Positions 2,534 through 26,669 are shown, counted from the first letter of the stretch. The stretch: 26,669 nt of DNA from Candidatus Bathyarchaeota archaeon (GCA_963739305.1 CAVTZU010000027.1:1-26669); one strand, 5' to 3'. The notes: generated from the letters alone by a model not told the origin. A program made the numbers and translations.

Positions 2534-2545
2534 ACAGCTTAAGAA

Positions 2546-2554
2546 CGCGCGCGC
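2546..2554. repeat. GCGCGCGC junction motif
   Basis: CGCGCGCGC 12 nt after the stop at 2533. Confidence 0.8.
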
Positions 2555-2596
2555 ATATTGGGATAGCAATCATTTTCTTGACGAATTATTTGCGTG

Positions 2597-2767
2597 CTAA
2601 CCTAACGAGCAAGTCCACTCTATCTTCCCATGGTCAACCTCGTCAACTGCGTAGCAGATGAACGACAAAGATCCGCAGGAACACAGAATATGAGATTTGC
2701 GCTATTTCCCAACTTTGTCCGAATGTTTTTTCTTCTTTTGAACATTCTTCTTTTTCAACGAAGGCAT
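2597..2767 (-). pseudogene. Small basic Cys-containing (zinc-ribbon-like) ORF with an internal TAG
   Basis: MPSLKKKNVQKKKKHSDKVGK*RKSHILCSCGSLSFICYAVDEVDHGKIEWTCSLG*; GGAG upstream; internal stop at 2702-2704. Confidence 0.45.
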
Positions 2768-2796
2768 ACACTAATCTCCACGAAACAATACTATCT

Positions 2797-2818
2797 ATTA
2801 GCAGTATAGTCTGCTAAT
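2797..2818. promoter_or_regulatory. Inverted repeat, candidate operator
   Basis: ATTAGCAG-N6-CTGCTAAT between a minus-strand TATA-like CTTAAA (~2820-2825) and the ORF starting at 2767. Confidence 0.4.
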
Positions 2819-3025
2819 GTTTAAGAAACTTTTCACTAACTAGAACTCCGAGAGCTGAAAGAAAATGGTGGAGTTGCAGGAGAAATCGTCAAGTTGGTGG
2901 TGAATAGCTGAACTCCACTACTGCGTCGGTACATCTGGACTTGATACTATCCTGTAAAATGGCTTCTCCTTGCCCTAATTTGGCGGACTTGAGCCCGTCT
3001 GAATATGAGCCCGGTCCGGCCCACC

Positions 3026-3035
3026 TAGCGCGCGC
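3026..3035. repeat. TAGCGCGCGC junction motif
   Basis: Perfect copy, intergenic. Confidence 0.8.
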
Positions 3036-3135
3036 TCAACAAAATCAGCGTTTGCAAATATTTACTCAGGTAATTTGAAAAAAGAATATAGAAACTGGGA
3101 TAAAGCTAATCTTAGAATAGAGCTATTGGCTTAAT

Positions 3136-3285
3136 CTAAAATCGACTTCTTCTTGGGGGTGCTCTCTTCGAGTAACACTCTCGGCAGTATACTGGTCTGC
3201 TACCATCGGGCTTGAATGGTACTTCACATTCCTTTCCACATTCAGCGCAAACTGCCTTGTGCATCTCTTTTCTTTCATACGTCAA
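3136..3285 (-). CDS. CxxC-x17-CxxC domain small zinc-finger protein (49 aa; below the ORF-track cutoff)
   Basis: MTYERKEMHKAVCAECGKECEVPFKPDGSRPVYCRECYSKRAPPRRSRF; family-typical CxxCG..CEVPFKP...RPVYCxxC; TTG start with GGAG upstream; TTTATAA on the minus strand at ~3359-3365. Confidence 0.9.
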   Translation of the reverse strand: MTYERKEMHKAVCAECGKECEVPFKPDGSRPVYCRECYSKRAPPRRSRF

Positions 3286-3458
3286 CTCTTTCAACTCCTT
3301 CGCAGTTGCTGTGCAAAAATCACTTCTTACACGCTTCTTTCACCGTTCACATCGCAGCTTATAAACAGCACGCTCAGAATTATGAAGTCGAGACCCATTG
3401 AAATCAGATTCGCAAGCGTTCCACTTCACCGCGATAAGAAGCGCGCAAACGAAATCGA

Positions 3459-3545
3459 CAGAATCAGTAGAACCACCTTAGGCTCGTCCATTCTGTGGAT
3501 CGATCCTGGAAACTGCTCCGGCTCTTACATGGTTTTTGCAAGTTT
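3459..3545 (-). pseudogene. tbp: Degenerate internal fragment of a TATA-binding protein gene
   Basis: KLAKTM*EPEQFPGSIHRMDEPKVVLLIL versus the archaeal TBP signature YEPEQFPGLIYRMxEPKVVLLIF; flanked by GCGCGC (3441-3446) and GCGTGCGC (3548-3555). Confidence 0.75.
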
Positions 3546-3611
3546 GGGCGTGCGCTCAGCTTGCAAGAAAAGCTTTAGTTGTAGGCACGACATTGTTTGT
3601 CTTGTGAGTAA

Positions 3612-4139
3612 ATGAGTGATGTAAATTCTCTCTTTGAAATCAACGATCTGGTGCTGAAGAAGAAGATACTCTCTGTTCGTGAGCACTATGACTTAGAGGA
3701 TAGGACTGGGATGAAATTGGGAGAGGCTGATGGCAATCTCATTCAGCTTCCAGCCAAGTTTGTCGTCATCGATACCCATGGTTCTGAGTTGATGCAAATC
3801 AAAGGAAAAGTACTGTCGCTCCGAACCCAGTTCACTTTTTACGACGATGCAGGCGCGGAACTGGGAACTATCAAGAAGAAGATAGTCAAGCTGATTGGAG
3901 AAGAGTACTGGGTAGAAAAAAACGGAGTTGAATTCATGCGTATCTACGGAGACTTCACGGAGCACAACTATCAGATGGAGATCAACGGGGTTCAGGTCGC
4001 GTCTGTACATAAGAAGTGGGTTTCGGTGCGAGATCAGCTCGGAGTATCAATAACGGGAGAAGCGGATCACCGAGTGGTAATCGGAGCAGTGATCGTGATC
4101 GAACACGTGGAAGTTACGGAGAGGCAGAGTCACCACTAG
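3612..4139 (+). CDS. LURP-one-related/scramblase-like (tubby C-terminal-like) protein
   Basis: Repeated K(K)xLSxR beta-hairpin units, IxGDFxxHNY, VAxVHKKW.SxRD and a C-terminal hydrophobic helix. Confidence 0.8.
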   Translation: MSDVNSLFEINDLVLKKKILSVREHYDLEDRTGMKLGEADGNLIQLPAKFVVIDTHGSELMQIKGKVLSLRTQFTFYDDAGAELGTIKKKIVKLIGEEYWVEKNGVEFMRIYGDFTEHNYQMEINGVQVASVHKKWVSVRDQLGVSITGEADHRVVIGAVIVIEHVEVTERQSHH

Positions 4140-4178
4140 ACTGTGACAAGACTCAACGTTGATTTGGGCAGTTTGCAT

Positions 4179-4187
4179 GCGCGCGCG
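4179..4187. repeat. GCGCGCGC junction motif
   Basis: GCGCGCGCG between the LURP-like and nuclease genes. Confidence 0.8.
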
Positions 4188-4253
4188 AAGCAATCGAAGA
4201 TTCTTCCACAAGTCATAAGAACGTTCAAGAGAGTTTGAAGTTCTTGGTGACAA

Positions 4254-4847
4254 ATGAGCAAGACAGTCATACTGGTTTTGGCATCTATGTTTTTTTTGCA
4301 GTTCATAACCATAGGTTATGGCGCTTCTTCGGGCGAGATAGATGCAACCGCAATAGCTACAAGTGTTCATGATGGAGACACCTTCTACATTGACAAAGAA
4401 TTTCACGGCTCAGATACAATCAGATTAGCCGACATTAATGCTTCAGAACTGGGGCAACCCCTATCTGTTGAAGCGAGAAACTTCCTTTCAGATCTTGTTT
4501 ATCAGAAAACTGTTTACTTGGACATAGATGATGTCTACATATTCGACTATAGTGGAACTGGTGACAGGCTTGTTTGCGTGGTCTACGTGAGCTACAATTC
4601 GACCCATTATGAGAATGTAAACAAAGCGCTCCTGGATGCAGGTCTCGCTGAAAAGAAAGACTACAACAACGAATTTGACCCAAACACCTGGACTCTATAT
4701 GTTTCAAAACAGGAGATTCCAGAGTTTCAGACAATTCTGATTCTGCCTTTATTCATGACAGTAACACTACTCGCAACGACACTCTACAAAAAAAAGTGCG
4801 AAGCTCGGCAAAGCTACTTATGTTTCATGAACAGTCACACGTCGTAG
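4254..4847 (+). CDS. Secreted thermonuclease (SNase-like) with PEF-CTERM sorting signal
   Basis: Signal peptide; DGDT, IRLADINASE, RLVCVVY and NKALLDAGLA motifs; IPEF + TM helix + KKK. Confidence 0.85.
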   Translation: MSKTVILVLASMFFLQFITIGYGASSGEIDATAIATSVHDGDTFYIDKEFHGSDTIRLADINASELGQPLSVEARNFLSDLVYQKTVYLDIDDVYIFDYSGTGDRLVCVVYVSYNSTHYENVNKALLDAGLAEKKDYNNEFDPNTWTLYVSKQEIPEFQTILILPLFMTVTLLATTLYKKKCEARQSYLCFMNSHTS

Positions 4848-4855
4848 CGCGCGCG
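4845..4855. repeat. TAGCGCGCGCG junction motif overlapping a stop codon
   Basis: The TAG of the nuclease ORF is the start of the motif; variant GCGCACGCGC follows at 4917-4926. Confidence 0.8.
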
Positions 4856-5024
4856 ATTTCAGAAAAATCAAGTCAAGGACAATATTCCGCAATAGTTGGC
4901 GCTTATGGTCTTTCTTGCGCACGCGCAAACAATGAGGCATCATCAAGAGTAGCATAGCCCATACAAAAAAGCATATCGCCCTTGGAAAAAAAGATAGAAG
5001 ATGAAAATCGCTCTGCCAGCCTGA

Positions 5025-5489
5025 TCAACCGTGCATTATCGATATCGTTCCCCAAGCACTCACTTCTGCACCTAACGGCGTTGTCATGCCCATTTCGTGC
5101 ACGTTGCATCCGACCAGGTTCGCGTATATCCCGGTTGCACCTGTCACCTGTCCGTTTGCCCTCCACTTGAAGGTCACAAAGCTCCAGACACCGTCATCAT
5201 ATCCCGCGATTGTCCCGTCAGCCGTGGTGATAACGAACGTTTCAGAGAAGTGCTCCGTCTTGCCTGGAAAACTCGGCGGCAACTCGGTGACGATTAGGGT
5301 TCCTTCTATGTCTCCGGTGACTGTTCCTTCCCAATGAGGCGGAGTGGTCCAGAACACCTTCATCGTCAATTCACATCTAAGGAGATTTTCTGGTTCTGCA
5401 ATGCGTGCGCATGCTAATGGTGCGAGTAACATGCCTCCCATGAACAGCGCCAACACTAATGTTGTAATCAATTTTGTTTTCATTCTCAT
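5025..5489 (-). CDS. Secreted beta-strand-rich hypothetical protein
   Basis: Signal peptide; GGAGGTGA RBS; Gly/Thr-rich strands (GQVTGATGIYANLVG). Confidence 0.7.
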   Translation of the reverse strand: MRMKTKLITTLVLALFMGGMLLAPLACARIAEPENLLRCELTMKVFWTTPPHWEGTVTGDIEGTLIVTELPPSFPGKTEHFSETFVITTADGTIAGYDDGVWSFVTFKWRANGQVTGATGIYANLVGCNVHEMGMTTPLGAEVSAWGTISIMHG

Positions 5490-5540
5490 TTCTCTTTCAC
5501 CTCCTTTCTCTCTTCAACTTTCTTCAATCGCATTCCTATT

Positions 5541-5549
5541 CGCGCGTGC
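5541..5549. repeat. Junction motif variant CGCGCGTGC
   Basis: Lies in the 78-nt gap between two minus-strand genes. Confidence 0.6.
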
Positions 5550-5567
5550 TGAGTGGGTCAAGTCTGC

Positions 5568-8500
5568 TTATGGATAGTGTTGGTTATAGTGGCCTGCCAG
5601 GAGTATGGCGTCAAAGATGTCGACAGTGCCGTCTGCATTAAGGTCGGCGTTCGGGTTCCATTTGGGGCTTGTTGGCGTGGAGAGGAATGCAGCTGCAAGT
5701 ATTATGGCGTCGTAGATGTCTACGACTCCGTCGCCGTTGGTGTCTCCAGTTATCTTCGAGATTGTGAGGGTCACGTTTCCGGCGAATGGTGTACCGCCAA
5801 CCAGAGTGCCTGTTATGTTGAAAGTGTTTCTTCCGTAGGTTTTGCCTGTCGCATTAAGAACGTATTGTTCTACTAATGTTCGGTTGAAGTAGACCTTAAG
5901 GTTGTTCTCAGACTCGTTATACACGGGCATGGCAAAATCATAGGGATATAATGTACCGTTCAGCAGAGTGCTGACGGTGTCGTTGAGGCATATGGACCGA
6001 ATATCAATCGCGCTTGCGTTCAGATTTGTCACGCCGTTTCCATCAGGTATTTTTATGTAAGCCGCTATGAGGGTGTCGGTAGTGCGCGGATTAATAGCTG
6101 AAGGCGACAGTTTCAGTTCTGCGCCTACTGCTTGGAGAGGTGCGGGCATTGTCACGGAAACATAATGCACGTCGCTGGTCACGTTGTTGTAGTCGTCGTC
6201 GCCTAACCACTTTGATCGAGCGAAGAATCCACTGAGCACTCCACCATTTCCTAGATCTAGTTGTGGTGTGGTGATGTTTCCTGAGAATTGTCCACTGTCA
6301 ATTATTCTTCCTGTGTATAGGATTTCGGGCACGGTCCAGTTATAGTCATAGACGCCGGTTGAGCTAACGTTCAGGATGCCTACGGTAAACCATGTAGAAC
6401 CATCTAGGCTGTACTGAAAGATAACAGGTCTATTCTGAAGTGCCGGCCCAATTGTGGCGGTCATTTTGATGTCGGTGGCTGCTTCCACGACATCTGAAGA
6501 CACAGACAGCGATAATGAGGGATCTGCTTTGTTCACAATCACTGTTTGAGTTTCACTTGTTCCGTTGCTGTATATTGGATCACCGCTCCAGTACGCTCGA
6601 ACGGAGAAGTTTCCTGCGCTGGGCGGAGTCCATTCTCTAACGAAATACGTTCGATTGGGAGTTGCGGAATCAATGTCGGTCCAAGTTACGTTGTCGATGC
6701 TGTACTGAAGGTAGATTGTGCCGGTGACTATTGAGGAAGGAACCAGCCCAGCCCCAAGCAGGATCGACTGGCCAAAATTAATGATCGGATTCGTCGGGTT
6801 AGTGCCGAACAAAATCGTTACCTGATGCTTTATCACTCTGAAGTTGTCAGTGGTCACGTATTGGACGAAACCTTTCAAGTCAATTACGTACACCTCAACC
6901 TGGAAGATCCCGCCCAAGTGCTGTTCAATCAATGACCCGTAAGTGCTTATTGAGATTGAGTCGTTCCACAATCCGTTCCAGTTGACGGGAACCACGTAGT
7001 CGTTCGTGCAGAAGGCGTTGCCGTCGGGATCCCGCCAAATATAGCGAATTGTCTTAGCGAAAGCCGCGAAACTTGGCGTGATGCTCGTATTTGTCCACAC
7101 CCTGTCGTAATTCGTGAATAGGGTAGGGTCAGGCGAATAGACGAAATTTGAACCGACTTGCCCGAATATGTGATGGGATCCAGCCATAGTCTCACCACGT
7201 ATATGAATTATCGGCAGGTACATCGAAGTGGAGTTTATGATACTGCGGATATACTCGGGATATGTAAACCATATACGGGCGTTGTACAGAGTGAAGATTG
7301 GGCTCTTAATGTCATAGACTCCCACTCTTAGTTGGTCAGTATCGCTTGAATTAGGAAAGATGCACACCCAGTAGCTTCCAGGAGCTTCAATCTGACCTAC
7401 GTTAATGTAGCTCAGGTAGTCGGGTGGTCCGGGCGGTGTAGTAGTGAAGAACTCACCGTAGCGGTGAGTTGCCCTGTACAATACGTTGATACCGCCCGAG
7501 GTAGAATTCAAATACCATATTTCGACCAAAAATTGCCTGGTTCCATCTCCCGTGTAGTAGGCTGGAAAACCTATTTGTTCAACCTTGAAACCTTGAACAG
7601 GGGGGTTATAGAACTCTGCGGCCCAGCCAATGATGGCGGCGTGAGGGTCCGTGGGTTCACGCCAATACTCATTTGGTACACCGCCCGCCGGCTCCGTACT
7701 GTCGAATTCTTGAATCCCAGGAACATCGGGTGCGACTCTCAAGTTTACAGTCCCGTTTGAGGCTTTATACTCACCGTTTCCAGAATAGGTAGCCCTGACG
7801 GTGTAGTTACCATCGCTTGCTGGCACCCACCAGTAAGAAAAGGCCGCCCCCTGCAAGTAGGGAGTACCTATCGGCTGCCACGTACCGCCTCCATCGAGAC
7901 TGTACTCCAATACGATTCTTCCTTGTATGAGGTTGAACCAAGAGCTGTAGTCTGAGTGACTGTTGAGGAAGTTGCATGTGACTGAACCCGCAAGATAAGT
8001 GCCGCTGCCCGTCATAATTGCATAGTTTGGCAGCTGGAGAGTAGTCCTTGTGTTGGCCAATCCGAATTTTCCCTTCCAGCTTTTTATCACTTCGTCTTTC
8101 AGCGTATAGCTGGTGCTTTCAATGCCCAGTAGATATTCGAGCCAGCCTGCAATGGCAAGACCGGCGTGTATTCTAAAGCCCAGATCGACGGACCAGACCG
8201 CCAAGTCAGGGTCATCGGCCGAATAATAGTTTATCAAGGCGTGCACGTACGGTTCAAACCCGACCCATGGACCGACGCTTTCGAAGAACATCAGGCTAAG
8301 GTCAAACTCGACGCCTGCATCCGCCTCCAAGTACAGTTTGATTTCGTTAGCACCCCACGTGTGGGAACTGTAAGAGCTGAATTCGGCAATGGGACTCCAC
8401 CCGTCTTTAATGTCCCACTGTATGCCGGATTTGAAGTAGTAGCCAATTATGTACTCAAAGTAGAAGTCGAGCTCACCATTCATTTCCAGATGGACGTAGG

Positions 8501-9776
8501 GCTTCATATGCAGATCAAGGCCTGCCTCAATTGGAATCGTAGCGATCTCGAAGTACAAAATGGCCAAGCGATAAGTCCAAGATGCATCCCAGTCGCATGT
8601 GAAAGCGGGGAAATGGACATAGAAGTCCAGTCTGATCTTCAATTCGGCATCTGCGCCAAACCATGCTCTGAACCACTGAAGTAGCAACCCACTGAAATCC
8701 CATCCAACATACCCTGAAAAAGTTACCGAAGGAGTAAGCGTAAGATCAACCTGTAGTCCGTTATCGTTAATAAGAGTGGTTGTGATGGAGAAACCCATTC
8801 CTATCGAGAAATCGAAGTGGGAATCACGCTGGAAATCGCCAGACTGCATTCTCTCAAGCCCCAACGACGCCGAATTCGGCAAAAGATACGTGATCCTAAG
8901 GTTCCTGTAATTGCAGAAGTTGTTGAACAAATCGGAATCAGGTGCTGTAATGTTCGAATTGGACACGGTGGTCCTGTCAGTTAGGATCACAGTTGAGTCC
9001 GAGACAGCAACGTCTGCACTCATATAAGTGCCTCCTCCGAAATCCAGCACCCAGTGTAACCCAGAAAGTTCATCGCTGTTGAGCAACGTCGCTCCGATCG
9101 GGAGCCTGATTTCCGTGGTCCAAACAATCGTGTAAGTATCTACACCTTGGATCGAGTCGAGCAGCATTTTTGCGAACATTATCTCGGTCATTTCGTAACC
9201 GATGACCGTCTTCTTCGCATCTTCATCCTTCTGACCGATAAAAAGAGTCCAGATGCCGTCGGCACCGTTAGCCGTGACGTTCAGCACCTGAGGTGTGGCC
9301 ACTGCGCTGAACGAGTATCTGAAGCCTCCGTCACTGTCTTGAGGCATCATCGACGAATTGAGTATCTGCGTCGTGAAACCAAACGAGTATTTCTGCTCCT
9401 GCCGGACCGAGCGGTAGAACTCTTCCCTCACTGGCAGGCTGTTCTGGATTAGATTTTGGCTCAGATTGCCCGTCGACTTCCTTGTTTCTGGAATCGGGAT
9501 TTCTGTTCCGACCTCAGTGTCAGATGGTGCTGCCAGGTTATCCCTGTACCTGTCAGCCAGAGGAGAGTTGGGTGCAACTGTGTTAACTATTAATTGAGCG
9601 TCTCCGTTTTCTTCTACGATCACCTGCTCCTGCGCGTACATTTTCAGAATCTTACTATCTGCATCCTCTGCCCAACTCGTCAAAAAGACGCTGCCAACAC
9701 TGCAAAAAGCAGAACCGACAATGAGGAACAACAGTGTAGAAGCAGCAAGTCGCCTAATGGCTACTGGAACTTTCAT
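5568..9776 (-). CDS. 1402-aa secreted multidomain surface protein with Ig-like repeats and C-terminal dockerin
   Basis: Signal peptide; three (L/F)(E/Q)YS.D...W ... (V/F)RA.(Y/W)SG-type Ig-like units; duplicated dockerin motif GDTNGDGVVDIYD...ADLNADGTVDIFD. Confidence 0.85.
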   Translation of the reverse strand: MKVPVAIRRLAASTLLFLIVGSAFCSVGSVFLTSWAEDADSKILKMYAQEQVIVEENGDAQLIVNTVAPNSPLADRYRDNLAAPSDTEVGTEIPIPETRKSTGNLSQNLIQNSLPVREEFYRSVRQEQKYSFGFTTQILNSSMMPQDSDGGFRYSFSAVATPQVLNVTANGADGIWTLFIGQKDEDAKKTVIGYEMTEIMFAKMLLDSIQGVDTYTIVWTTEIRLPIGATLLNSDELSGLHWVLDFGGGTYMSADVAVSDSTVILTDRTTVSNSNITAPDSDLFNNFCNYRNLRITYLLPNSASLGLERMQSGDFQRDSHFDFSIGMGFSITTTLINDNGLQVDLTLTPSVTFSGYVGWDFSGLLLQWFRAWFGADAELKIRLDFYVHFPAFTCDWDASWTYRLAILYFEIATIPIEAGLDLHMKPYVHLEMNGELDFYFEYIIGYYFKSGIQWDIKDGWSPIAEFSSYSSHTWGANEIKLYLEADAGVEFDLSLMFFESVGPWVGFEPYVHALINYYSADDPDLAVWSVDLGFRIHAGLAIAGWLEYLLGIESTSYTLKDEVIKSWKGKFGLANTRTTLQLPNYAIMTGSGTYLAGSVTCNFLNSHSDYSSWFNLIQGRIVLEYSLDGGGTWQPIGTPYLQGAAFSYWWVPASDGNYTVRATYSGNGEYKASNGTVNLRVAPDVPGIQEFDSTEPAGGVPNEYWREPTDPHAAIIGWAAEFYNPPVQGFKVEQIGFPAYYTGDGTRQFLVEIWYLNSTSGGINVLYRATHRYGEFFTTTPPGPPDYLSYINVGQIEAPGSYWVCIFPNSSDTDQLRVGVYDIKSPIFTLYNARIWFTYPEYIRSIINSTSMYLPIIHIRGETMAGSHHIFGQVGSNFVYSPDPTLFTNYDRVWTNTSITPSFAAFAKTIRYIWRDPDGNAFCTNDYVVPVNWNGLWNDSISISTYGSLIEQHLGGIFQVEVYVIDLKGFVQYVTTDNFRVIKHQVTILFGTNPTNPIINFGQSILLGAGLVPSSIVTGTIYLQYSIDNVTWTDIDSATPNRTYFVREWTPPSAGNFSVRAYWSGDPIYSNGTSETQTVIVNKADPSLSLSVSSDVVEAATDIKMTATIGPALQNRPVIFQYSLDGSTWFTVGILNVSSTGVYDYNWTVPEILYTGRIIDSGQFSGNITTPQLDLGNGGVLSGFFARSKWLGDDDYNNVTSDVHYVSVTMPAPLQAVGAELKLSPSAINPRTTDTLIAAYIKIPDGNGVTNLNASAIDIRSICLNDTVSTLLNGTLYPYDFAMPVYNESENNLKVYFNRTLVEQYVLNATGKTYGRNTFNITGTLVGGTPFAGNVTLTISKITGDTNGDGVVDIYDAIILAAAFLSTPTSPKWNPNADLNADGTVDIFDAILLAGHYNQHYP

Positions 9777-9875
9777 TTCTCATTTCTCCAATCATAAGGA
9801 CTGCTAGGAAAACTGTACTGTGGAAAAATACCTAAGCATTTTTCCCAAGGAGGGAAAAACAACCATAAGACACAG

Positions 9876-9906
9876 AAAAAGGCGGCAGTTTGACTTTCTC
9901 GCCGCC
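9876..9906 (-). terminator. Hairpin plus T-tract downstream of the TPR gene
   Basis: GGCGGC-N14-GCCGCC followed by TTTTT on the minus strand, ~35 nt after the stop. Confidence 0.5.
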
Positions 9907-9940
9907 CAGAAAAACTTTGCCGAAACAGAAAAGAACTGAG

Positions 9941-13552: not shown

Positions 13553-13665
13553 CTTATACTAACATCTTGGACTCTGAAAAACCTTTTCCAAATCAAAACT
13601 CCAAGTGTTGCACAAGAATCATATGCTAAGACAGAGATAAGTAGGAGTTGCGGGTGATATCCTCA

Positions 13666-13674
13666 CGCGCGCTA
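13666..13674. repeat. Junction motif CGCGCGCTA (TAGCGCGCG on the minus strand)
   Basis: Directly precedes the integrase remnant. Confidence 0.75.
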
Positions 13675-14090: not shown

Positions 14091-14198
14091 ATGCCATGCG
14101 GAAAATAGGAAGGTTCTTTTCTAGAGAGGAAGGTTTTAATCAAAAACAACTTATTAATGAGGTAATCCCCAAAACATCTTGAAACAGTAGCCCGGGAA

Positions 14199-14298
14199 AG
14201 CCCGGTGGAGGGAAGAAGATCTTTCCGCCGAATGTAGTGGACAAGCATAGTGGCCTTTGGAGCCATTGACGAGAGTTCGAATCTCTCCCGGGCTACCA
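14199..14298 (+). tRNA. tRNA-Gln(UUG) with a 24-nt intron at position 10/11 (14209-14232) and encoded CCA
   Basis: Acceptor AGCCCGG/CCGGGCT; anticodon arm GTGGC-CTTTGGA-GCCAT; T arm GAGAG-TTCGAAT-CTCTC; removing 14209-14232 restores the D arm; TATA-like TTATTAA at 14151-14157. Confidence 0.92.
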
Positions 14299-14433
14299 CT
14301 CTCCAGAGTTTGATTATACTTTCTGCCGAGGGGTTTCGCTCATTTCCCCTATTTTTCTTTTTGTGAGCACCTTGGCGTTGGAATAGGCGGTTTTTTGTTG
14401 GAGACGGGCGGAAGTAAAAATTCTGGTTCTCGG

Positions 14434-15878: not shown

Positions 15879-15901
15879 GTAACCTAGACGCTCGAAGGTT
15901 T

Positions 15902-17224: not shown

Positions 17225-17304
17225 GGTACACCGCCACTGATCACAATGGTTACCTCAATAATTATAATTTGTGGAGAAATCTTTTACCATATTCTATGTT
17301 AGCG

Positions 17305-17315
17305 TAGCGCATGCG
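17305..17315. repeat. Junction motif variant TAGCGCATGCG
   Basis: Between the divergent NosD-like genes. Confidence 0.5.
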
Positions 17316-17379
17316 ATTTGCACCGTAACGGATAAATTGCCTAGAACGGGATAGTCTTAGTTGAATTGGGGAAGGCAGA

Positions 17380-18768: not shown

Positions 18769-19252
18769 AGACACTGATTCTGAGTTTCGAAGACTTCGGA
18801 CGGAAGCCACCCCTCATCTTCTAAAAGAAGTCAAAAACCAAATAAACAAACAGTGACTCACGCATAGCATCTCGAAAGGTGCCCGGTTTGCTACCGTTCG
18901 ACGCTGCAAGAACTGGCCTCCGTTGGAGCCACATTATTTGCCTCGGGTACCTGAAGGGGAGGGGAGAAACTTTTTAAGTTGAATCAGGGCTTAGTTATTC
19001 TTGCAGTGCCTACTCATTATTGAGTAGGGTTCTTTTCGCCGCCTTCGAGAGTGGCGCTAGAAGGAAATAGTGAGTGTGATGTTGATTTGTGTCATAGACG
19101 AAGTGAAGCAGCGATAGCTAGGCGCAGGGCTCGTTCCATAATCTTAGCGTGCAGTTTTCGGGATATCCGTAAATCTGAGACTGTTTGCATGGTTAACCGC
19201 GTTGACATCGCTGGTCTCCTGCCTGGACCTGTCGATTACTATCTAGTCCCAG

Positions 19253-19735
19253 ATGTCACAAAAGGCGAAATCCTCGTTGACAGTCGTGGTTCAGGGAGCT
19301 TTCAGCGGTGAAAAAAGCGGGGGGTCCTCAATTTTGGGCGGTAAGACGGCTCGCAAAATTGTGGTAGCCCGTCGTATTTCCCAACTTCGGAGAAGTGTGA
19401 GGTTTGATACTGACCGGTTGAGACGGAAGACTATTGGTAGTCTTGAGCAGTTGTTTGATGTTGCCACTGATTTTGCAAAGGGAAGGATCAAGTGGCAGAC
19501 GCAGGACGGTAAGGCCTCACCGGTTACGATTAAGCAGAGGCAGATGTGGGCTCGTATCGCTGCGTACGTCGCTCAAATCATGAACACGATTGCGAACGGG
19601 ATTGATGAACGACAGATTGACAAGGATTTGGCCTTGCTGGAGAAGCTTGTGAATGAAGCAACGGCAAAAAACAACGGTTCACACTCTAGACCGGAACATG
19701 GCCAAGAAGCGAACGCTCCCAAGGCTCCCAGATGA
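19253..19735 (+). CDS. Helical hypothetical protein overlapping the terminase gene (possible small terminase subunit)
   Basis: Basic, helical; directly upstream of and overlapping terL; start uncertain; function inferred from position only. Confidence 0.55.
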   Translation: MSQKAKSSLTVVVQGAFSGEKSGGSSILGGKTARKIVVARRISQLRRSVRFDTDRLRRKTIGSLEQLFDVATDFAKGRIKWQTQDGKASPVTIKQRQMWARIAAYVAQIMNTIANGIDERQIDKDLALLEKLVNEATAKNNGSHSRPEHGQEANAPKAPR

Positions 19736-20161
19736 TAAAGTCGAGTTTTTCGAACAGGTTCTGAAGATTAAGCCCTTTCCGTACCAAGCTTCGTTTCTAC
19801 TGGATCCTGCTGCTCTCAAAGTGTTGCGGTGGCCCAGGCGTGCCGGCAAGACGATGACGATGGCCGGAGATGACCTTCATTTTGCGATGCATAACGGAAA
19901 CGCGAAAGTCATCGTTACTATGCCGAAGTATCAGCAGATCAAAGAGATCTATTTCCAAGCTTATCATGAACACCTTGCGCGGATGGACCGAGACATCTAC
20001 GAGGCTTACATTGAATCTGAGTTGCAGACGATAATTCGCTTCAATAACGGAACGATTATTCTGGCCGAGACGCCTGAGCCATTCACGATCCGTGGCCACG
20101 GACCCAAGAAGATCAGTATTGATGAGATGAATTTCATTCGGCAGGACGAGGATCTATGGCT

Positions 20162-20171
20162 TAGCGCACGC
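20162..20171. repeat. Junction motif variant TAGCGCACGC
   Basis: At the apparent terminase breakpoint. Confidence 0.7.
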
Positions 20172-20264
20172 TTCTTTTTCACAGTATGGTTTGCAGGAGT
20201 GTGCCATTGGAAGGGAAAGTGGAACATTAGATTTATTAGTGGTACTGGAAAGGCATTAAGGTTA

Positions 20265-20276
20265 AGCGCGCGCTAG
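20265..20276. repeat. AGCGCGCGCTAG junction motif
   Basis: Supplies TAG stops on both strands. Confidence 0.8.
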
Positions 20277-20398
20277 ACCTCAATGACTGAATGACATCTA
20301 GGACAATTCCTAGGATTTCCTTCTGTCTTAAACTCCAGCCCACAGTTCTTACATCTGCAGTTCTTTGCTCTACCATATTTTCTGTATCTTTCACTCAT
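20273..20398 (-). CDS. 41-aa zinc-ribbon protein (below the ORF-track cutoff)
   Basis: MSERYRKYGRAKNCRCKNCGLEFKTEGNPRNCPRCHSVIEV; CxxCG..F and CPxC; AAGGA upstream; stop inside the motif. Confidence 0.75.
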   Translation of the reverse strand: MSERYRKYGRAKNCRCKNCGLEFKTEGNPRNCPRCHSVIEV

Positions 20399-20410
20399 TC
20401 TTTTTCCTTC

Positions 20411-20476
20411 TTAGCGCGCGCGTTGAATTGGGTGGTCAATAACGAATGCAAGTTCCTTGTTTTCTTCGGTTACCAT
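20411..20476 (-). pseudogene. Probable 5' fragment of an ArsR-like HTH gene, cut at the motif
   Basis: MVTEENKELAFVIDHPIQR|AR*; resembles the HPxRxxI start of ArsR-type wHTH; minus-strand GAAAAGGTTAAAG promoter-like element ~30 nt upstream. Confidence 0.4.
20412..20422. repeat. TAGCGCGCGCG junction motif
   Basis: Perfect copy. Confidence 0.8.
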
Positions 20477-20580
20477 ATCAGAATATCAGACTGGTTGACA
20501 CAAGCTCTTTAACCTTTTCAAGGTTTGTCTGAGTAGACGTTGCCGTCGAAGGATTTGACCAGGACCAAAAAACAAGAAAA

Positions 20581-20592
20581 AGCGCGCGCTAG
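20581..20592. repeat. AGCGCGCGCTAG junction motif overlapping the GyrI-like stop
   Basis: Minus-strand TAG (20589-20591) is part of the motif. Confidence 0.8.
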
Positions 20593-20990
20593 AGAATAGG
20601 CAGCAGTAGGATAACTTCATTTTGACTCCTGTAGAACTCGATGTACCAGCGATTAGGATCGCGCCTGTACTCCTGCTCCATCGATTTGAAAGTTTCTCCG
20701 ATTATCTCGACTCTACTGGCAAAGTTCTCGATCTTCTCTCTGGCGAATTTGCCACCAGGAATCGTCCACGTCGGCAATCCAAGCGCTTTTGGTTCTTCCT
20801 CGTTAATGATGGCTACACATGCACGGTACACTTTGTCTTGATCATAATAAGCACCATACATCTTGCGTCCTTTAAGACTTGGAAGATTAGACTCCAGCTT
20901 AGACCAAGCTGTGCCAACTCCAGAAAGACCGCCTTTCGCTTCCATATACATCACTTTCACCGGTTCCAAAGTCACTTCGATCCTAGCCAT
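20589..20990 (-). CDS. GyrI-like small-molecule-binding protein
   Basis: AW.KL, YG.Y, YRACV, TIPGGKFA and IEFY motifs. Confidence 0.85.
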   Translation of the reverse strand: MARIEVTLEPVKVMYMEAKGGLSGVGTAWSKLESNLPSLKGRKMYGAYYDQDKVYRACVAIINEEEPKALGLPTWTIPGGKFAREKIENFASRVEIIGETFKSMEQEYRRDPNRWYIEFYRSQNEVILLLPIL

Positions 20991-21054
20991 TCAAACACCA
21001 CTTTGCCAATCACTTGATAATCGGATATATTTCATATATCCTCTTCGTCTTGTC

Positions 21055-21065
21055 TAGCGCGCGCT
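21055..21065. repeat. TAGCGCGCGCT junction motif
   Basis: Between divergent genes. Confidence 0.8.
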
Positions 21066-21132
21066 GTCCATCCTCTTCAGCCGCCAGTAGATGCCAAAAA
21101 AGACTTTAATGAAAATTGGTTTAGTTACAATT

Positions 21133-21744
21133 ATGAAAACAAGACTTTTGGCGATAGTGGGCTCCCACAGAAAAGACGGCAACTGTTACGCATTAGCCAA
21201 GTCTGTCCTCGAGTCTACAAGTTCCAAGTTCAGAATAATCCAGTTAGCAAGCAAGAAAATTGAGTTTTGCGTTCTCTGCGAAAAATGTGTGCACGAAGAC
21301 TGTGTCTTGACGGATGATCTAAACCAGATTCTCGCAGAGATGAAAAAAGCCGATGCGATAATGTTCATATTCCCTAAGTATCTTTTGGCTTCCTCAAAAT
21401 TCTTGGCTTTCTTGGAAAGACTGGACACCATTGTTCATATGCGAAAACACAAAGGCTACAAACACACCTTCGCAGAACCAAACTATAGGCTCTTACCGAA
21501 GCAACAACCTTTCTGCGTTTTTGCCTCGTCAGGCACGGGCAGATTCAAGAAGGAAACACTGCGTACTGTCGTAGAGTATATCGAATCTCTTGGGCTGACA
21601 TTAATCTCACACGATCGTCCTCCCTTCATAGCGGTCAACGTCAGAACAGGTGACGAAAAGGGCGAAGTCCTAAAGAACAAAGCAGCGTTGAAACAGTGTA
21701 CAGAACTGACAAACAGAGTTATCAAGTCAATCAAGAAAGAATAA
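21133..21744 (+). CDS. Flavodoxin-like NADPH-dependent FMN reductase / iron-sulfur flavoprotein family
   Basis: IVGSHRKDGN; CxxCxxCxxxxC...DD; ATG at 21133 lies ~25 nt after TTTAAT; stop TAA runs into variant GCACGCGC (21745-21752). Confidence 0.8.
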   Translation: MKTRLLAIVGSHRKDGNCYALAKSVLESTSSKFRIIQLASKKIEFCVLCEKCVHEDCVLTDDLNQILAEMKKADAIMFIFPKYLLASSKFLAFLERLDTIVHMRKHKGYKHTFAEPNYRLLPKQQPFCVFASSGTGRFKKETLRTVVEYIESLGLTLISHDRPPFIAVNVRTGDEKGEVLKNKAALKQCTELTNRVIKSIKKE

Positions 21745-21813
21745 GCACGCGCTTCCTTTGTTACACGCTGAGAATTCCACAAACATTAATAGAATAAGAC
21801 GCAGAACAAGCCC

Positions 21814-22485
21814 ATGATGAAGCGTGTACTAGTTTTCGCAGCACATCCTGACGACGATCTAATCGGGTGCGGCGGTAGCCTGGCAAAACACGTGAAACTG
21901 GGAAATCACGTCTCTGTATGTTACGTATCTTCTGGAGAAGCAGGGAGCCTTGAACACTCAAAAAAGGAACTGACACGAATAAGAGAAGATGAAGCAAAGA
22001 AAGCTGCAGAGATCATTGGTTTCACAGACATCATTTTCCTCAGAAACCGAGACGGATATCTGGAATATAACGAACCAAACCTGACGCAACTTGTGGATCT
22101 GATCAGAAAGAAGCAGCCGCATGTTGTTTATGTTCATCATCGTTTAGACGCCCATGAAGACCATAAGGTGACTTGTCGGCTTGTGAATGAAGCAATAGCA
22201 AGAGCTAGTGTACCAGTGTTCCAAGAATATAAGGGGGAGCCGTGGTCAGTGGAAACTGTCCTGGCTTACGAAGTCTGGACGCCGCTTTTCGAGTTCAATT
22301 ACGTCGAGGATATCTCTGAATTTGTGAGCCTCAAGATTGCCGCTCTGAGAAAGCATCAGTCGCAGACCAAGATCATCCGCTACGACGAAGCAGCCGAGGG
22401 TCTTGCGCGGTACAGGGGAGCGATCACTGGAAGAGGAAAATACTGCGAAGTGTTTGCAGTGAACAAGGTCACAGAGTTGTTCTAA
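21814..22485 (+). CDS. PIG-L/LmbE family deacetylase
   Basis: AHPDD, SSGEAG, R..EA, DAHEDH and K..AL..H.SQ motifs. Confidence 0.9.
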   Translation: MMKRVLVFAAHPDDDLIGCGGSLAKHVKLGNHVSVCYVSSGEAGSLEHSKKELTRIREDEAKKAAEIIGFTDIIFLRNRDGYLEYNEPNLTQLVDLIRKKQPHVVYVHHRLDAHEDHKVTCRLVNEAIARASVPVFQEYKGEPWSVETVLAYEVWTPLFEFNYVEDISEFVSLKIAALRKHQSQTKIIRYDEAAEGLARYRGAITGRGKYCEVFAVNKVTELF

Positions 22486-22511
22486 AAGCCTCTAATTGCG
22501 ATTTTTGGAAT

Positions 22512-22518
22512 CGCGCGC
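22512..22518. repeat. CGCGCGC junction motif
   Basis: In the 46-nt gap between convergent genes. Confidence 0.65.
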
Positions 22519-22531
22519 TCTTGATCCGGGA

Positions 22532-23458
22532 CTACTTGGAAAGGAGTCTCCAAGAGAGGACGATTCCAATTACAGATAGTACAATCGCAAACCCAATCAA
22601 TACCCCAAAGTCTAGCAAAAGACTGTTCGAACCTGTCGCGCCTATCAACAGCTGTCTTACTGCATCATTAGCATAACTGACTGGGTTGACCTTCACGACG
22701 TCTTGAAGCCAGGTTGGCATTATCGTTACAGGGAATATTGCGTTGCTTGCGAACAGCAGGGGCAGGTTGATAAGGTTGATGATAGCCACTTGTGTCTGCC
22801 AATCACTTGATCTCAACGCGAGCATAGTGAATAACGCTGACAGCCCCGTCGCCATGAGGAAAATGATGACGAATGTGCCCGCAATTCCGACGACGGTGAA
22901 ATGACCTGTATCCATCCCGAGTATTATTGCGATAACTAGAACTATGGCCGATTGAATCAACGACCTACCCACACTTTGGAGGACTTTGCCCATCACAATC
23001 GCTCCGCGCGCCACAGGCGTGCTTAGCGCCTTGTTCAGGAAACCGAACCTGCGGTCAAACACAACCGACATTCCGCTAAACGCGGAAGTGAACAGGACGA
23101 CAAAGGCAATCATTCCGCAAGCCAGGAATGAAAAGTAGCTGGTCGTGCCGAATAAGTTCAAAAGAATTGCGTTTTGCTCCGCTTGCGTGCCCCCGGCCTT
23201 TGCGATGAACTCTCCAAAGTTCACGGCTTTGCCGAACAACGCGAGCCAAACTACCGGTTGGATTAGCGATGTGATTAGCTGGACTGGGTTCGTGTACCAC
23301 TTTCTCAAATCTCGGTTCGTTAGCGCCCATAACCCATGCAGCGGACTCCTGCTCAGTTTTGGAGCCGCCCTGACTACCATCTGCTTCTCCGCAGAAACCT
23401 CTTCAGGCTGTTCCCCTATTGCTGTTTCCTTGCTTGTTGTCGGTTTGATTTTTTCCAT
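22532..23458 (-). CDS. ABC-2 type exporter permease (DrrB-like)
   Basis: About six TM helices; DRRFGFL...LSTPV; MPTWLQ...NPVSYA; alternative GTG start at 23464. Confidence 0.9.
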   Translation of the reverse strand: MEKIKPTTSKETAIGEQPEEVSAEKQMVVRAAPKLSRSPLHGLWALTNRDLRKWYTNPVQLITSLIQPVVWLALFGKAVNFGEFIAKAGGTQAEQNAILLNLFGTTSYFSFLACGMIAFVVLFTSAFSGMSVVFDRRFGFLNKALSTPVARGAIVMGKVLQSVGRSLIQSAIVLVIAIILGMDTGHFTVVGIAGTFVIIFLMATGLSALFTMLALRSSDWQTQVAIINLINLPLLFASNAIFPVTIMPTWLQDVVKVNPVSYANDAVRQLLIGATGSNSLLLDFGVLIGFAIVLSVIGIVLSWRLLSK

Positions 23459-23473
23459 ACTCACTCCCGCATT

Positions 23474-24502
23474 TTACGATCTTGCTCTTCTCACCGTTAC
23501 GCGTTGTCTAAACATCTGCATCCTGTCAGCTTCTTCTTCCCTCAGACTGCGGCCAGTAAATTCCAGATATGCCTCGTCCAAGGTTGGCTTCGTCAACGAG
23601 ACTTTCGTCACGTGAAGCCCTTTGGATCGAATTAGATCCGTGATTTGTGGGGAGGCTTCCTCTCCGAGCTCCACCTTTATACGATAGTTGTTATCGTTCT
23701 TCTGAACGTTCTTTACCAATTTGATGTTAGCAATATCGGATGAAATGTCCGGCTCTGTCTCCTTGAGTGTAACCACGATGACGTCTCCGCCGATGCTTTC
23801 CTTCAACTCTTCAGGTGAGCCAATTCTTATGATGTGACCGTGATCGATTATGGCTATTCTGTCGCAGAGTGAGTCGGCTTCTTCGAGATAGTGAGTTGTC
23901 AGAAAAAGAGTCATGTGGTATTCATTTTTCAACATTTTGATGTATTTCCAGACCACAGTGCGTGTTTGAACGTCGAGACCGAGCGTTGGCTCATCCAAGA
24001 ATAGCAATTTCGGATAATTGATTAAACCACATGCGAGCTCCAGTCTCCTGCGCATTCCTCCTGAGTATGTGCTCACCTTCCTCTTTGCAGCGTCTTGAAG
24101 CTCTACCAGCTTCAGCAGCTCTTGTGCGTGTGGTTTTGAATCACCTCTTGGTATTCCGTAGAGATCAGCGCAGAGGAGGACGTTGTTAATTCCAGTCATG
24201 TCCTCGTCAGCAGTGTACTCCTGCGGGACAACTCCAACATTTCTTCGCACCTCGTTCGCATCTTTGAATATGTCATAGCCGCAGACCACTGCGTTTCCTG
24301 ATGAAGGCTTGATCAGGGTCGTAAGCATGTTGATGGTAGTGGTCTTGCCTGCTCCGTTAGGGCCAACGAAACCAAAAATTTCCCCCGTTTTGACTTCAAA
24401 GCTTACGTTATCTACGGCCTTCAACTTGCCGAAGGCTTTTGAGAGATTCTCAACCTTCGCAATAATCAGAGGCATTGTAGGTCCGGCTTGCGTTGCAGAC
24501 AC
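23474..24502 (-). CDS. ABC exporter ATP-binding subunit (DrrA-like)
   Basis: GPNGAGKTT, YSGGM, LFLDEPT, TTH; GTG at 24502 with GGAG RBS and TTTATAA ~30 nt upstream. Confidence 0.92.
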   Translation of the reverse strand: MSATQAGPTMPLIIAKVENLSKAFGKLKAVDNVSFEVKTGEIFGFVGPNGAGKTTTINMLTTLIKPSSGNAVVCGYDIFKDANEVRRNVGVVPQEYTADEDMTGINNVLLCADLYGIPRGDSKPHAQELLKLVELQDAAKRKVSTYSGGMRRRLELACGLINYPKLLFLDEPTLGLDVQTRTVVWKYIKMLKNEYHMTLFLTTHYLEEADSLCDRIAIIDHGHIIRIGSPEELKESIGGDVIVVTLKETEPDISSDIANIKLVKNVQKNDNNYRIKVELGEEASPQITDLIRSKGLHVTKVSLTKPTLDEAYLEFTGRSLREEEADRMQMFRQRVTVRRARS

Positions 24503-24568
24503 GTTTGCTCGCTCCTGATTTTTGTCTATTATAAAGCATTGATTCGATTGATATGCGCTATAAAAACA

Positions 24569-24578
24569 TAGCGCGCAC
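24569..24578. repeat. Junction motif variant TAGCGCGCAC
   Basis: Just upstream of the ABC operon promoter. Confidence 0.6.
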
Positions 24579-24641
24579 GACACCAAATCAGGTCTGCAGA
24601 GAACAAGAAGCACATTCAAGAGTTGGCTTAGGTTCAGAAGT

Positions 24642-24818
24642 TCAGGGAAAACCAAAAGAGAGGATTTCTACGCACGTGTCACTTGGATTAGAGTTTGTCA
24701 CTGTCACATTTGCCGTTGCTTGTATGCTAATGTTGTGAAGTGCAATTCTGATATCTATAACCTTTGTAAGCAAAAAGGGAAAGACCACTGTTCCATTTAT
24801 GCCAACTTCTGTTAGAGT
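24642..24818 (-). pseudogene. Start-less 3' fragment of a secreted glycoprotein-like gene
   Basis: TLTEVGINGTVVFPFLLTKVIDIRIALHNISIQATANVTVTNSNPSDTCVEILSFGFP*; beta-rich with NGT/NIS/NVT sequons; begins 8 nt from the motif. Confidence 0.4.
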
Positions 24819-24826
24819 TTAGTAAT

Positions 24827-24834
24827 CGCGCGCG
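24827..24834. repeat. CGCGCGCG junction motif
   Basis: Perfect copy upstream of the acyl-CoA dehydrogenase gene. Confidence 0.8.
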
Positions 24835-26597: not shown

Positions 26598-26669
26598 CTT
26601 TTCACCATCATGATCAGAAATTGCGGCTTAGGTAGTAGCAATGCAAATTTGACCCTTTAAGCTTATCCT

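Follow-up and report, generated by a model that had tools for sequence, protein, structure and literature searches.

The cassettes of integrons are bounded by attC sites, imperfect hairpins of ~55-140 nt with GTTRRRY cores, and stand in a single array, co-oriented and mostly promoterless, beside intI, attI and Pc. The pdif modules of Acinetobacter plasmids lie between XerC/D sites of 28 bp, built of two arms and a spacer and served by the housekeeping Xer recombinase. In Neisseria, the 20-bp repeats of dRS3/NIME and minimal mobile elements are tied to a filamentous-phage integrase and to transformation; in Borrelia, ResT fuses hairpin telomere ends, and the known resolvase sites are much longer than the word considered here. 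This word, the palindrome GCGCGCGC, recurs at gene junctions along a 26,669-nt stretch of DNA from a Candidatus Bathyarchaeota archaeon, which we call the window and which is the whole of contig C27 of its source genome (G000; 2.32 Mb in 36 contigs). We put at about one in two the probability that the motif is an orientation-free recombination joint that bounds mobile gene cassettes ("palindrome-bounded gene cassettes").

Comparison with these systems brings out likenesses and differences. As with integron cassettes, the cargo is promiscuous, with about one gene per unit bounded by a recombination site; an occupied position has two sites and the empty one a single site (contigs C2 and C3 of G000); there are site-gene-site arrays; GNAT acetyltransferases and small regulators are among the cargo; and the strain-variant cargo examined holds no recombinase. 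Unlike attC, the site is a perfect palindrome of 8-12 bp without pairing of its flanks, and in place of a single array there are hundreds of dispersed sites, with units that keep their own upstream spacers and lie in either orientation; no integrase tracks the trait. The pdif modules are likewise gene modules without a recombinase of their own, with short inverted sites in varied contexts and orientations, but the word here has 10 bp, is chromosomal and is present in hundreds of copies. Short inverted repeats delimit interchangeable intergenic or gene-sized units between conserved flanks in the dRS3/NIME case as well, although the present setting is archaeal and the word 10 bp long. REP and BIME elements also comprise hundreds of short, lineage-specific intergenic palindromes, sometimes at rearrangement points; in contrast with REP and BIME served by RAYT, there is no Y1 transposase here (PF01797 matched 0/11 genomes of the genus, including a closed one, and 1/41 relatives), no 20-40-nt hairpin and no conserved head sequence. 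As in ResT fusion, a palindrome whose centre is alternating CG would be regenerated, in either orientation, if it were cut and any two ends were rejoined, but the ResT/TelK catalytic domain (PF16684) was matched in 0/5 motif-rich genomes.

A further counterpart is HIP1 (GCGATCGC) of cyanobacteria, which passages of PMC4390886 and PMC5861425 present as an octameric, GC-rich palindrome, lineage-restricted and the most over-represented word of its genomes. According to passages of PMC5861425 it is enriched and positionally conserved both within and between genes, and passages of PMC4390886 assign cognate orphan DNA methyltransferases to words of this type. Our motif resembles HIP1 in being an octameric palindrome and the top word of G000, of G001 (a closed genome of the same genus) and of 400 kb of G090 (family f35). 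It differs in that 82-85% of its copies are intergenic, in the variable genome and at unconserved positions. It may also differ in having no cognate methylase, with no match to PF00145 in G000 and G001 or to PF01555 in G090. An initial reading of the window from its sequence alone (the sequence-only reading) had set both attC and HIP1 aside, and we agree, as neither the attC structure nor the coding enrichment and conservation of HIP1 is present. Our literature search, with supplementary files outside it, found no description of GCGCGCGC as an intergenic palindrome or in archaea, nothing on highly iterated palindromes in archaea beyond the cyanobacterial work, no work joining integrons or attC with Bathyarchaeota, and nothing relevant on mobile elements or hypervariability in Bathyarchaeia. 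PMC4390886, a paper on HIP, has no mention of archaea, GCGCGCGC or intergenic location.

Abundance and genomic setting of the word

The GC content is 46.8% for the contig and 47.4% for the genome, which corrects the ~45% assumed in the sequence-only reading. There are eight matches to GCGCGCGC in the window (2547, 3028, 4179, 4847, 20266, 20414, 20582, 21057) against 0.25 expected, in line with the earlier estimate of fewer than one copy by chance, and 0/100 dinucleotide shuffles of the window reach eight copies. The word CGCGCGCG has five matches against 0.17 expected and adds a site at 24827. Counted as maximal alternating runs, the window has nine of 8-9 nt, 7-mers at 13666, 22512 and 23005, and 6-mers at 3441, 5541 and 24571; all nine long runs lie where the sequence-only reading had placed them, as do its 7-mers and hexamers. 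Each of the nine is outside open reading frames (ORFs) of at least 80 amino acids or on a stop codon, just as had been claimed for the perfect copies. The motif overlaps or abuts the stops of three such ORFs: 4254-4847, 19653-20276, whose TAG (20274-20276) directly follows the copy at 20266-20273, and 20589-20990 on the minus strand. Among the stops that had been assigned to motifs, those at 4845/4847, 20273 and 20589 and the one at the variant at 21745 stand, while no credible gene was found for those at 2597 and 20411. The variants that had been listed are mostly one-transition derivatives, namely GCGTGCGC at 3548, GCGCACGC at 4917 and 20164, and GCGCGCAC at 24571; the one at 2592 is only a weak match.

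The enrichment is not confined to the window: GCGCGCGC is the top octamer of the whole of G000, with 359 copies against ~25 expected (order-3 Markov model), and the system is not a local island. The HIP1 word GCGATCGC occurs in G000 at expectation (25 vs 29), and other GC-rich palindromes lie mainly in coding DNA and are not enriched. The phase of the motif is fixed, with 178 exact 8-mers G-first versus 24 C-first. At the 178 G-first sites, A stands at -1 in 112 and T at +1 in 129, with a weaker preference for T and A at ±2. As a unit we take (T)AGCGCGCGCT(A), which has neither a wider conserved flank nor a hairpin: the full AGCGCGCGCT form is found at 82/178 and 114/231 sites, flank complementarity at ±3 to ±15 is 0.21-0.30, equal to background (178 and 231 sites), and the flank profile has no conservation past ±2 and no T-run. 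The 12-mer TAGCGCGCGCTA has 29 copies in G000 against 0.03 expected.

By our own codon-usage gene caller, a crude one (2094 genes and 79% coding in G000), 294 of the 359 copies (82%) are intergenic, 54 coding and 11 at boundaries, with 21% of the DNA intergenic. The density per kb is 0.57 in tandem, 0.86 in convergent and 0.52 in divergent spacers. The last ~40 nt before start codons are avoided (7/144 tandem-spacer sites lie that close), and the motif often supplies TAG stops on both strands. One-mismatch neighbours are enriched 1.9-fold genome-wide and transition variants 2.2-3.8-fold, for which reason the variants look like decayed copies. Sites are clustered, with 109 spacings below 1 kb in G000 against 71±6 under an intergenic-aware null.

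We compared conserved with variable DNA by running the same gene caller on G000 and G001 (2214 and 2247 genes); reciprocal best hits gave 1281 pairs with a median amino-acid identity of 74%. Spacers of G000 fall into four classes:

Spacers with both orthologues adjacent in G001: motif in 7/652, 0.16 per kb
Spacers with both orthologues present and adjacency broken: motif in 21/195, 0.41 per kb
Spacers with one flanking gene that has an orthologue: motif in 95/665, 0.78 per kb
Spacers with neither flanking gene having an orthologue: motif in 107/575, 0.89 per kb

The trend survives stratification by length, since among spacers of 50-300 nt the motif is present in 6/237 of those between adjacent pairs versus 43/309 and 51/261. 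It is opposite to the expectation for a general terminator or regulator site. The sequence-only reading had proposed intergenic versus coding and core versus accessory counts as its first check, and both fall on its side (294/359 intergenic; 0.16 per kb in conserved spacers vs 0.41-0.89); the equal frequency in core spacers that would speak against it was not found, with 7/652 in spacers of conserved pairs. At the DNA level the window is not collinear with any of five genomes of its genus. Only 10/340 sites had alignments spanning them, and a motif at the same position in the two species was seen for 1/340 and 2/455 sites.

Of the other genomes of the genus, 8/10 carry the 12-mer, with 7-19 copies in the larger assemblies; among the nearest relatives from outside the genus, 3/30 genomes do so, at 1-3 copies. 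A control pattern read backwards has no copies in this set and 0-3 per genome overall. In a class-wide sample of 301 Bathyarchaeia genomes of at least 80% completeness, 42 carry at least one copy and 13 carry nine or more. The carriers include 5/5 sampled genomes of family f35 (4-39 copies), 8/10 of family f26, one genome of f36 and one other genus of the window's family. We class g1, g40, f26, f35 and part of f36 as motif-rich, and f24 (3/53), f34 (3/44), f11 (0/22) and genus g33 (2/30) as poor. In G001, GCGCGCGC is again the top octamer (464 copies), and it is so in the first 400 kb of G090 (39% GC; 124 copies, 105 intergenic). The trait has a patchy distribution within the class and does not follow base composition. 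Cassettes of the window are not shared with five distant genomes of motif-rich families, four of which gave short hits only. One motif-rich genome of f26, G120, has ~40 TnpB-type and 25 DDE_Tnp_1 matches, against none and 2-3 in the window's genus, which indicates that motif abundance is independent of insertion-sequence load.

Among motif-to-motif segments of up to 5 kb, those that bear genes most often hold exactly one whole gene (54/232 in G000, 98/324 in G001); of these single-gene units, 51/54 and 90/98 retain a 5' spacer longer than 30 nt. Genome-wide, the sites form hundreds of singletons and clusters. The largest array in G001 (855-875 kb) has 22 motifs in 20 kb in gene-motif-gene order; the ten genes scanned there include a flavodoxin, GNAT acetyltransferases, CxxCxxCC and VTT-domain proteins, a helix-turn-helix (HTH) regulator and two short tyrosine recombinases, and the G000 orthologues of the array genes are spread over eight contigs.

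Junctions, duplicates and strain differences

We aligned every motif, together with 300 nt on either side, to the other genome and drew decoys from the same spacers. The best alignment of a flank stops no more than 3 nt from the motif edge in 27/223 cases for G000 against G001 and in 40/238 in the reverse direction, versus 4/140 and 4/171 for decoys, that is, 4-7 times more often. This is the outcome that the sequence-only reading had anticipated when it named breaks ending at the motif as a check. At the 27 exact breaks, blocks of up to 97% identity stop at the motif with unrelated sequence beyond, and in five of them a separate G001 motif lies 14-27 nt beyond. Three homology breaks lie in the window, at 3028, 4179 and 20266.

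Duplications within one chromosome end at the motif as well. In the closed G001 there are 42 dispersed repeat pairs of at least 250 bp, and 37 of their 168 ends lie within 12 nt of a motif, compared with 0.5% of 3000 random positions. We inspected 12 of the 42 pairs. They include a 585-bp pair, 100% identical and with the motif on both sides, in two unrelated contexts; a 290-bp unit in three copies that encodes an 82-residue AsnC-type domain; and a 930-bp unit. No target-site duplication is visible in the 12 inspected pairs or at solo insertions of the motif.

Besides the pair formed by the window's end and C22, about 20 contig pairs in G000 are 95-99% identical; we take them as strain variants, the assembly apparently mixing closely related strains. 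Relative to C3, C2 has an additional 4.2 kb, bounded by TAGCGCGCGC(G) on the left and by TAGCGCGCGC on the right, while the empty allele in C3 has one TAGCGCGCGC; the cargo is a cohesin/dockerin protein and a dockerin-tagged solute-binding protein. Between the same flanks, C13 has 2.0 kb (two NosD-like beta-helix proteins) and C17 an unrelated 2.9 kb (a STAND NTPase); in both contigs, homology breaks off at the motif on the left side, and on the right side it begins again ~20 nt beyond a motif. C6 and C9 differ by a 775-nt indel at GCGCGC hexamers. No recombinase was found in the C2, C13 and C17 cargo examined. The cargo of variable regions is mostly secreted and surface proteins, by Pfam matches for the C2 and C13 cargo and by eye for the ORFs of the window. 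Other indels lack the motif: three (C2/C3, C8/C30) are bounded by another repeat, and two (C1/C15) by nothing recognisable. This second boundary repeat, GGGGTAAAGTTTTATCC-like and beside short GGTTT-type tracts, is found at three strain indels of 0.6-2.7 kb and at one repeat end of G001 (C2:12159/12751, C3:5701, C8:6376/9042, C30:1984-2010; G001:2033861); another mobile element may have it as its attachment site or terminal sequence.

We also drew on four public runs of peat metagenomes, all of a single study, as assembled contigs rather than reads and matched at 90% likeness or more; only stretches bridged by run contigs are informative. In 4/4 runs, motif 21057-21064 is followed by AT and then by 20172 onward, with sides of up to 92 nt; joints of this sort may stem from other organisms. 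A contig of run X4 joins an intact motif at 173xx to 18935 onward, and the ~1.6-kb piece with gene 17380-18768 is absent from it. A joint 20412>20505 was not used, its sides being only 21-24 nt. Alternative junctions, a further check proposed for the sequence-only reading, are thus seen as the 4.2-kb indel with two copies versus one, as the C13/C17 replacement and as motif-edge joints in run contigs. The summed depth of run contigs is far higher over 2400-4400, 13739-15072 and 17741-22399 than over 4401-13738; this is neither copy number nor a ranking of genes, and hints that the high-depth pieces also occur in other community members.

Features of the window

The motif copies and the genes between them are as follows.

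2546..2554: motif copy CGCGCGCGC, 13 nt past the stop of ORF 2255-2533
3028..3035: motif copy TA-GCGCGCGC-T, a clean 8-nt insertion relative to collinear DNA of two same-genus genomes
3036..3446, minus strand: small cassette ending at the hexamer GCGCGC (3441-3446), multi-copy in 5/5 same-genus genomes searched
3136-3294, minus strand: zinc-ribbon ORF of 52 residues (CxxC..CxxC) inside cassette 3036-3446
3548..3555: decayed copy GCGTGCGC; homology to G001 and G008 begins 9-12 nt downstream
3612..4139, plus strand: LURP-one-related (LOR) gene, inside the conserved block 3564/3567-4175
4179..4187: motif copy GCGCGCGCG, a homology break; contigs of runs X1, X3 and X4 begin at 4193
4254..4847, plus strand: staphylococcal-nuclease-like gene with a hydrophobic tail, its TAG stop overlapping motif 4847-4855
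4847..4855: motif copy (TA)GCGCGCGCG on a stop codon, bridged by contigs of runs X1, X3 and X4
13666..13672: 7-mer CGCGCGC-TA in the spacer downstream of ORF 9941-13552
17303..17314: degenerate copy GTAGCGCATGCG, with the intact form TAGCGCGCG in a contig of run X4
20164..20171: decayed copy GCGCACGC, beyond which a terminase-like frame passes into unrelated repeat DNA
20172..20265, plus strand: copy of a ~100-nt repeat family, cut by the motif at 20266
20266..20273: motif copy GCGCGCGC-TAG, where G001 homology ends exactly; +GC length polymorphism in 4/4 runs
20273..20398, minus strand: zinc-ribbon ORF of 41 residues, a one-gene unit with a motif on each side, its stop abutting 20266-20273
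20414..20422: motif copy TTA-GCGCGCGCG
20582..20589: motif copy A-GCGCGCGC-TAG, overlapping the stop of ORF 20589-20990 (minus strand)
20589..20990, minus strand: ORF of 133 residues with a weak Cass2 (effector-binding) match, a one-gene unit between motifs
21057..21064: motif copy CTA-GCGCGCGC-T, with an alternative junction at the motif edge in run contigs
21091..21744, plus strand: FMN-reductase-like gene, ending at the variant GCACGCGC (21745)
22512..22518: 7-mer CGCGCGC in the spacer of convergent ORFs
24827..24834: motif copy CGCGCGCG in a divergent spacer, also retained in C22, a strain-variant contig of 97% identity

The block with the LOR gene is 83-84% identical in G001 and G008 and ends 4 nt short of motif 4179. 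Positions 22534-26669 correspond to C22:37482-41614 (reverse) at 97% identity, and the C22 counterpart of the 24571 variant is a perfect motif copy. In the terminase-like frame that ends before 20164, Terminase_6N covers residues 61-175 only.

The ~100-nt repeat family, with core ACATTAGATTTATTAGTGGTACTG, gave 11 blastn hits in G000 including the window copy (the others on C10, C12, C13, C17, C20 and C32) and three in G001 (1162124-1162843). Copies usually start ~20-45 nt past a motif or variant and a T-rich stretch, and the other copies extend past the point at which the window copy is cut by motif 20266. The family could be a small RNA gene or a mobile module.

Integrated-element remnants occupy 13761-14287 and 19653-20160. 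They comprise a C-terminal fragment of a tyrosine integrase (36% identity, one internal TGA), an N-terminal fragment of a terminase large subunit, and a 57-nt tRNA fragment (14231-14287, by Rfam) that was the sole hit of Rfam and tRNA scans of the window; ARAGORN found no tRNA in it. At the left end, ORF 1-2433 encodes a large surface protein rich in repeats. ORF 2255-2533 comes next in a different frame, and its terminus has, by eye, the look of a hydrophobic membrane anchor, which points to a gene that is frameshifted or split. By eye, dockerin-like repeats and hydrophobic C-terminal tails are seen in ORFs 4254-4847, 5568-9776, 15902-17224 and 17380-18768; we take these tails to be a PEF-type sorting signal.

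The enzyme question and rival explanations

Among the families searched, no recombinase, nuclease or methyltransferase is co-distributed with the motif, so that this check of the sequence-only reading came back empty. There are no matches to PF00145 (C5 methylase) in G000 and G001, none to PF00239 (serine recombinase) or PF07282 (TnpB) in G000, G001 and G090, and few to PF01609 (DDE_Tnp_1) in the genus and none in G090. PF01555 (N4/N6 methylase) is found in 4/5 motif-rich genomes, with no match in G090 (86% complete). Of the 14 G001 families with at least three members, the ten scanned include no transposase; they comprise GNAT, AsnC-domain, glycosyltransferase, Alba, CBS, HTH, HdrA/FlpD-like, chaperonin and mutase proteins. 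Ku, to our knowledge rare in archaea, is encoded in G000 (PF02735; C32:50991-51527) and G001 (958105-958644) and in 89/301 genomes class-wide. It is common in motif-poor f24 (25/53), f34 (26/44) and g33 (22/30) and rare in motif-rich f26 (1/10); Ku-dependent end joining as the source of the motif finds no support, as the distribution of Ku does not track the motif. A DDE-transposon miniature inverted-repeat transposable element was likewise rejected, with cargo unrelated between units, no target-site duplication in the 12 pairs, no transposase in the ten scanned families and PF01609 absent from G090.

In the explanation that we prefer, (T)AGCGCGCGCT(A) would be the joint at which pieces of one to a few genes, with their own upstream spacers, are inserted, deleted, replaced and duplicated. 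Any two sites could pair in either orientation, and mixed gene orientation and unrelated cargo would follow from a core that is its own reverse complement. Breakage and rejoining would take place inside the (GC)n tract, and a dedicated trans-acting factor, a recombinase or nuclease, may recognise the 10-bp word. Such a factor is favoured because the same word, with the same A/T flanks and phase, is found in distant families of 39% and 47% GC, because ordinary indels of the conserved backbone lack the motif, and because no examined cassette carries its own recombinase. The exact junctions, two copies versus one, identical duplicates and the scarcity of the word in conserved spacers speak for a part in recombination and against mere punctuation. 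The proposal of the sequence-only reading, in which accessory genes are assembled by a process that has the motif as its crossover site or scar, is therefore supported, with three of the four checks in its favour and the enzyme search empty; the mechanism is our inference. Going further, several Bathyarchaeia lineages may have an undescribed, horizontally spread system whose sole cis-requirement is the 10-bp AGCGCGCGCT, with a trans enzyme that cuts and rejoins in the alternating tract: a chromosome-wide, integron-like platform with the shortest recombination site known, which seeds new sites as 8-nt insertions. We hold this extended version only tentatively and would not call it probable.

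Several observations weigh against the motif as a recombination joint. Only 21/195 spacers at synteny breaks carry it. Of the non-orthologous blocks within conserved synteny, 2/51 and 5/71 have the motif in an outermost spacer, first or last, and 5/51 and 7/71 have it anywhere; many of these blocks are gene-caller artefacts, the block being as long as the "empty" spacer, yet clear multi-kb insertions inside conserved synteny also lack the motif. The motif thus marks one class of gene flux in variable regions, not every rearrangement. For most of the exact breaks, the corresponding point in the relative is without a motif (27 exact ends vs 8 alignments through the motif). At 3028 two relatives are collinear on both sides and lack exactly 8 nt, and there are three further solo insertions of 8-9 nt; conservative site-specific recombination does not produce such insertions. 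Tract length varies, with 202 runs of 8 nt, 96 of 9 and 48 of 10 in G000 and a maximum of 13, and the +GC variant at 20265 is present in 4/4 runs. Known sites of tyrosine and serine recombinases are far longer than 10 bp, and no enzyme was identified among the families searched. Tyrosine recombinases (PF00589) number 9-15 in the larger genomes of the genus and are equally many in motif-free genera, while G090 has one full and two fragmentary matches. The subfamily of the G001 array is not co-distributed with the motif: identity above 70% is confined to G000 and G001, with fragments in G005 and G009, and matches of 46-53% occur in motif-free genera. Further limits are the crude gene caller, a synteny comparison with a single relative (~74% amino-acid identity) and contamination of 7.8% in G000, itself a metagenome-assembled genome.

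The solo insertions and the variable tract length keep two other models alive. In one, a stable self-complementary (GC)4-5 tract is a passive microhomology hot spot, the best one on offer for the host's end joining or replicative template switching. Every event would copy a tract, so that tracts and the cassettes between them multiply by positive feedback, without any dedicated enzyme. Length variation with the +GC polymorphism, the failure of every test to produce a specific enzyme, tract-bounded copy-and-paste duplicates and an empty site that keeps one copy all suit it, and short templated insertions could yield the solo inserts of 8-9 nt. Annealing, however, needs neither a fixed phase (178 vs 24) nor A...T flanks (82/178 and 114/231 as AGCGCGCGCT). 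The same 12-mer recurs in distant families of differing GC and is missing from most families, other GC-rich palindromes are unenriched and mainly coding, ordinary indels lack the motif and Ku does not track it; we find this model doubtful, if worth keeping in view. The other model makes the palindrome a minimal terminal inverted repeat, serving as both ends of non-autonomous transposable units, with a transposase in trans that mobilises whatever lies between two copies, solo copies being empty elements or excision footprints. The solo insertions into collinear DNA fit well, as do the 27 exact breaks at which the relative lacks the motif, as if the insert had brought its ends; identical motif-flanked units in new contexts and the frequent TA flanks agree too. 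Yet no target-site duplication was seen in the 12 repeat pairs or solo insertions, no multi-copy transposase in the 10/14 G001 families scanned, no Y1 transposase in G000 and G001, no serine recombinase or TnpB in these two and G090, and no DDE_Tnp_1 in G090, and empty alleles that keep one copy require an extra assumption. All told, it is distinctly unlikely.

The motif might instead be functional punctuation (a protein-binding site, an insulator or terminator, a structure-prone element) carried by accessory genes or mobile elements, with recombination ends secondary, as at the module boundaries of mosaic phages. Its place outside genes, the avoided ~40 nt before starts (7/144), the TAG stops on both strands, the higher density after convergent genes (0.86 vs 0.52-0.57 per kb) and the integrase, tRNA and terminase fragments of the window are in keeping with this. 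We nevertheless think it unlikely: the motif is nearly absent from conserved-pair spacers of equal length (6/237 vs 43/309 and 51/261), its position is not conserved between species (1/340, 2/455), tandem, convergent and divergent spacers are alike, there is no hairpin or T-run, and homology ends exactly, within 3 nt. A HIP1-like word kept by methylation-linked biased repair or selection, with no role in recombination, would account for a palindrome that tops the octamer counts, like HIP1 of cyanobacteria in passages of PMC4390886, and for the enriched one-transition variants. We consider it very improbable, given that passages of PMC5861425 describe HIP1 as enriched and positionally conserved in coding and non-coding DNA whereas the motif is 82-85% intergenic and unconserved in position, that no C5 methylase was found in G000 and G001 and no N4/N6 methylase match in G090, and that biased repair leaves 8-nt insertions and kilobase indels ending at the word unexplained. 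Chimeric joins at a short repeat, an artefact of assembly or library, are scarcely credible even for a 36-contig metagenome-assembled genome with 7.8% contamination and strain-variant contig ends: assembler words are all longer than a repeat of 8-10 nt, the pattern recurs in the closed single-contig G001 and in 12 other genomes with at least nine 12-mer copies, contigs of three runs bridge the 4847 site, and the backwards-read control has 0-3 copies per genome.

Bathyarchaeia are among the most abundant archaea of sediment and peat, and their gene exchange is largely uncharted. Their genomes here have almost no classical insertion sequences, yet hold a large, shuffled accessory set of surface proteins, STAND NTPases, acetyltransferases and small regulators. 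The 10-bp palindrome is a testable handle on this gene flux and predicts where strains differ, and motif density is a trait for phylogenetic profiling toward the enzyme behind it. A dedicated enzyme, if there is one, would provide a tool for recombination at a very short site. The function of HIP1 has been debated for decades; in these archaea, the link between an iterated palindrome and recombination is directly visible.

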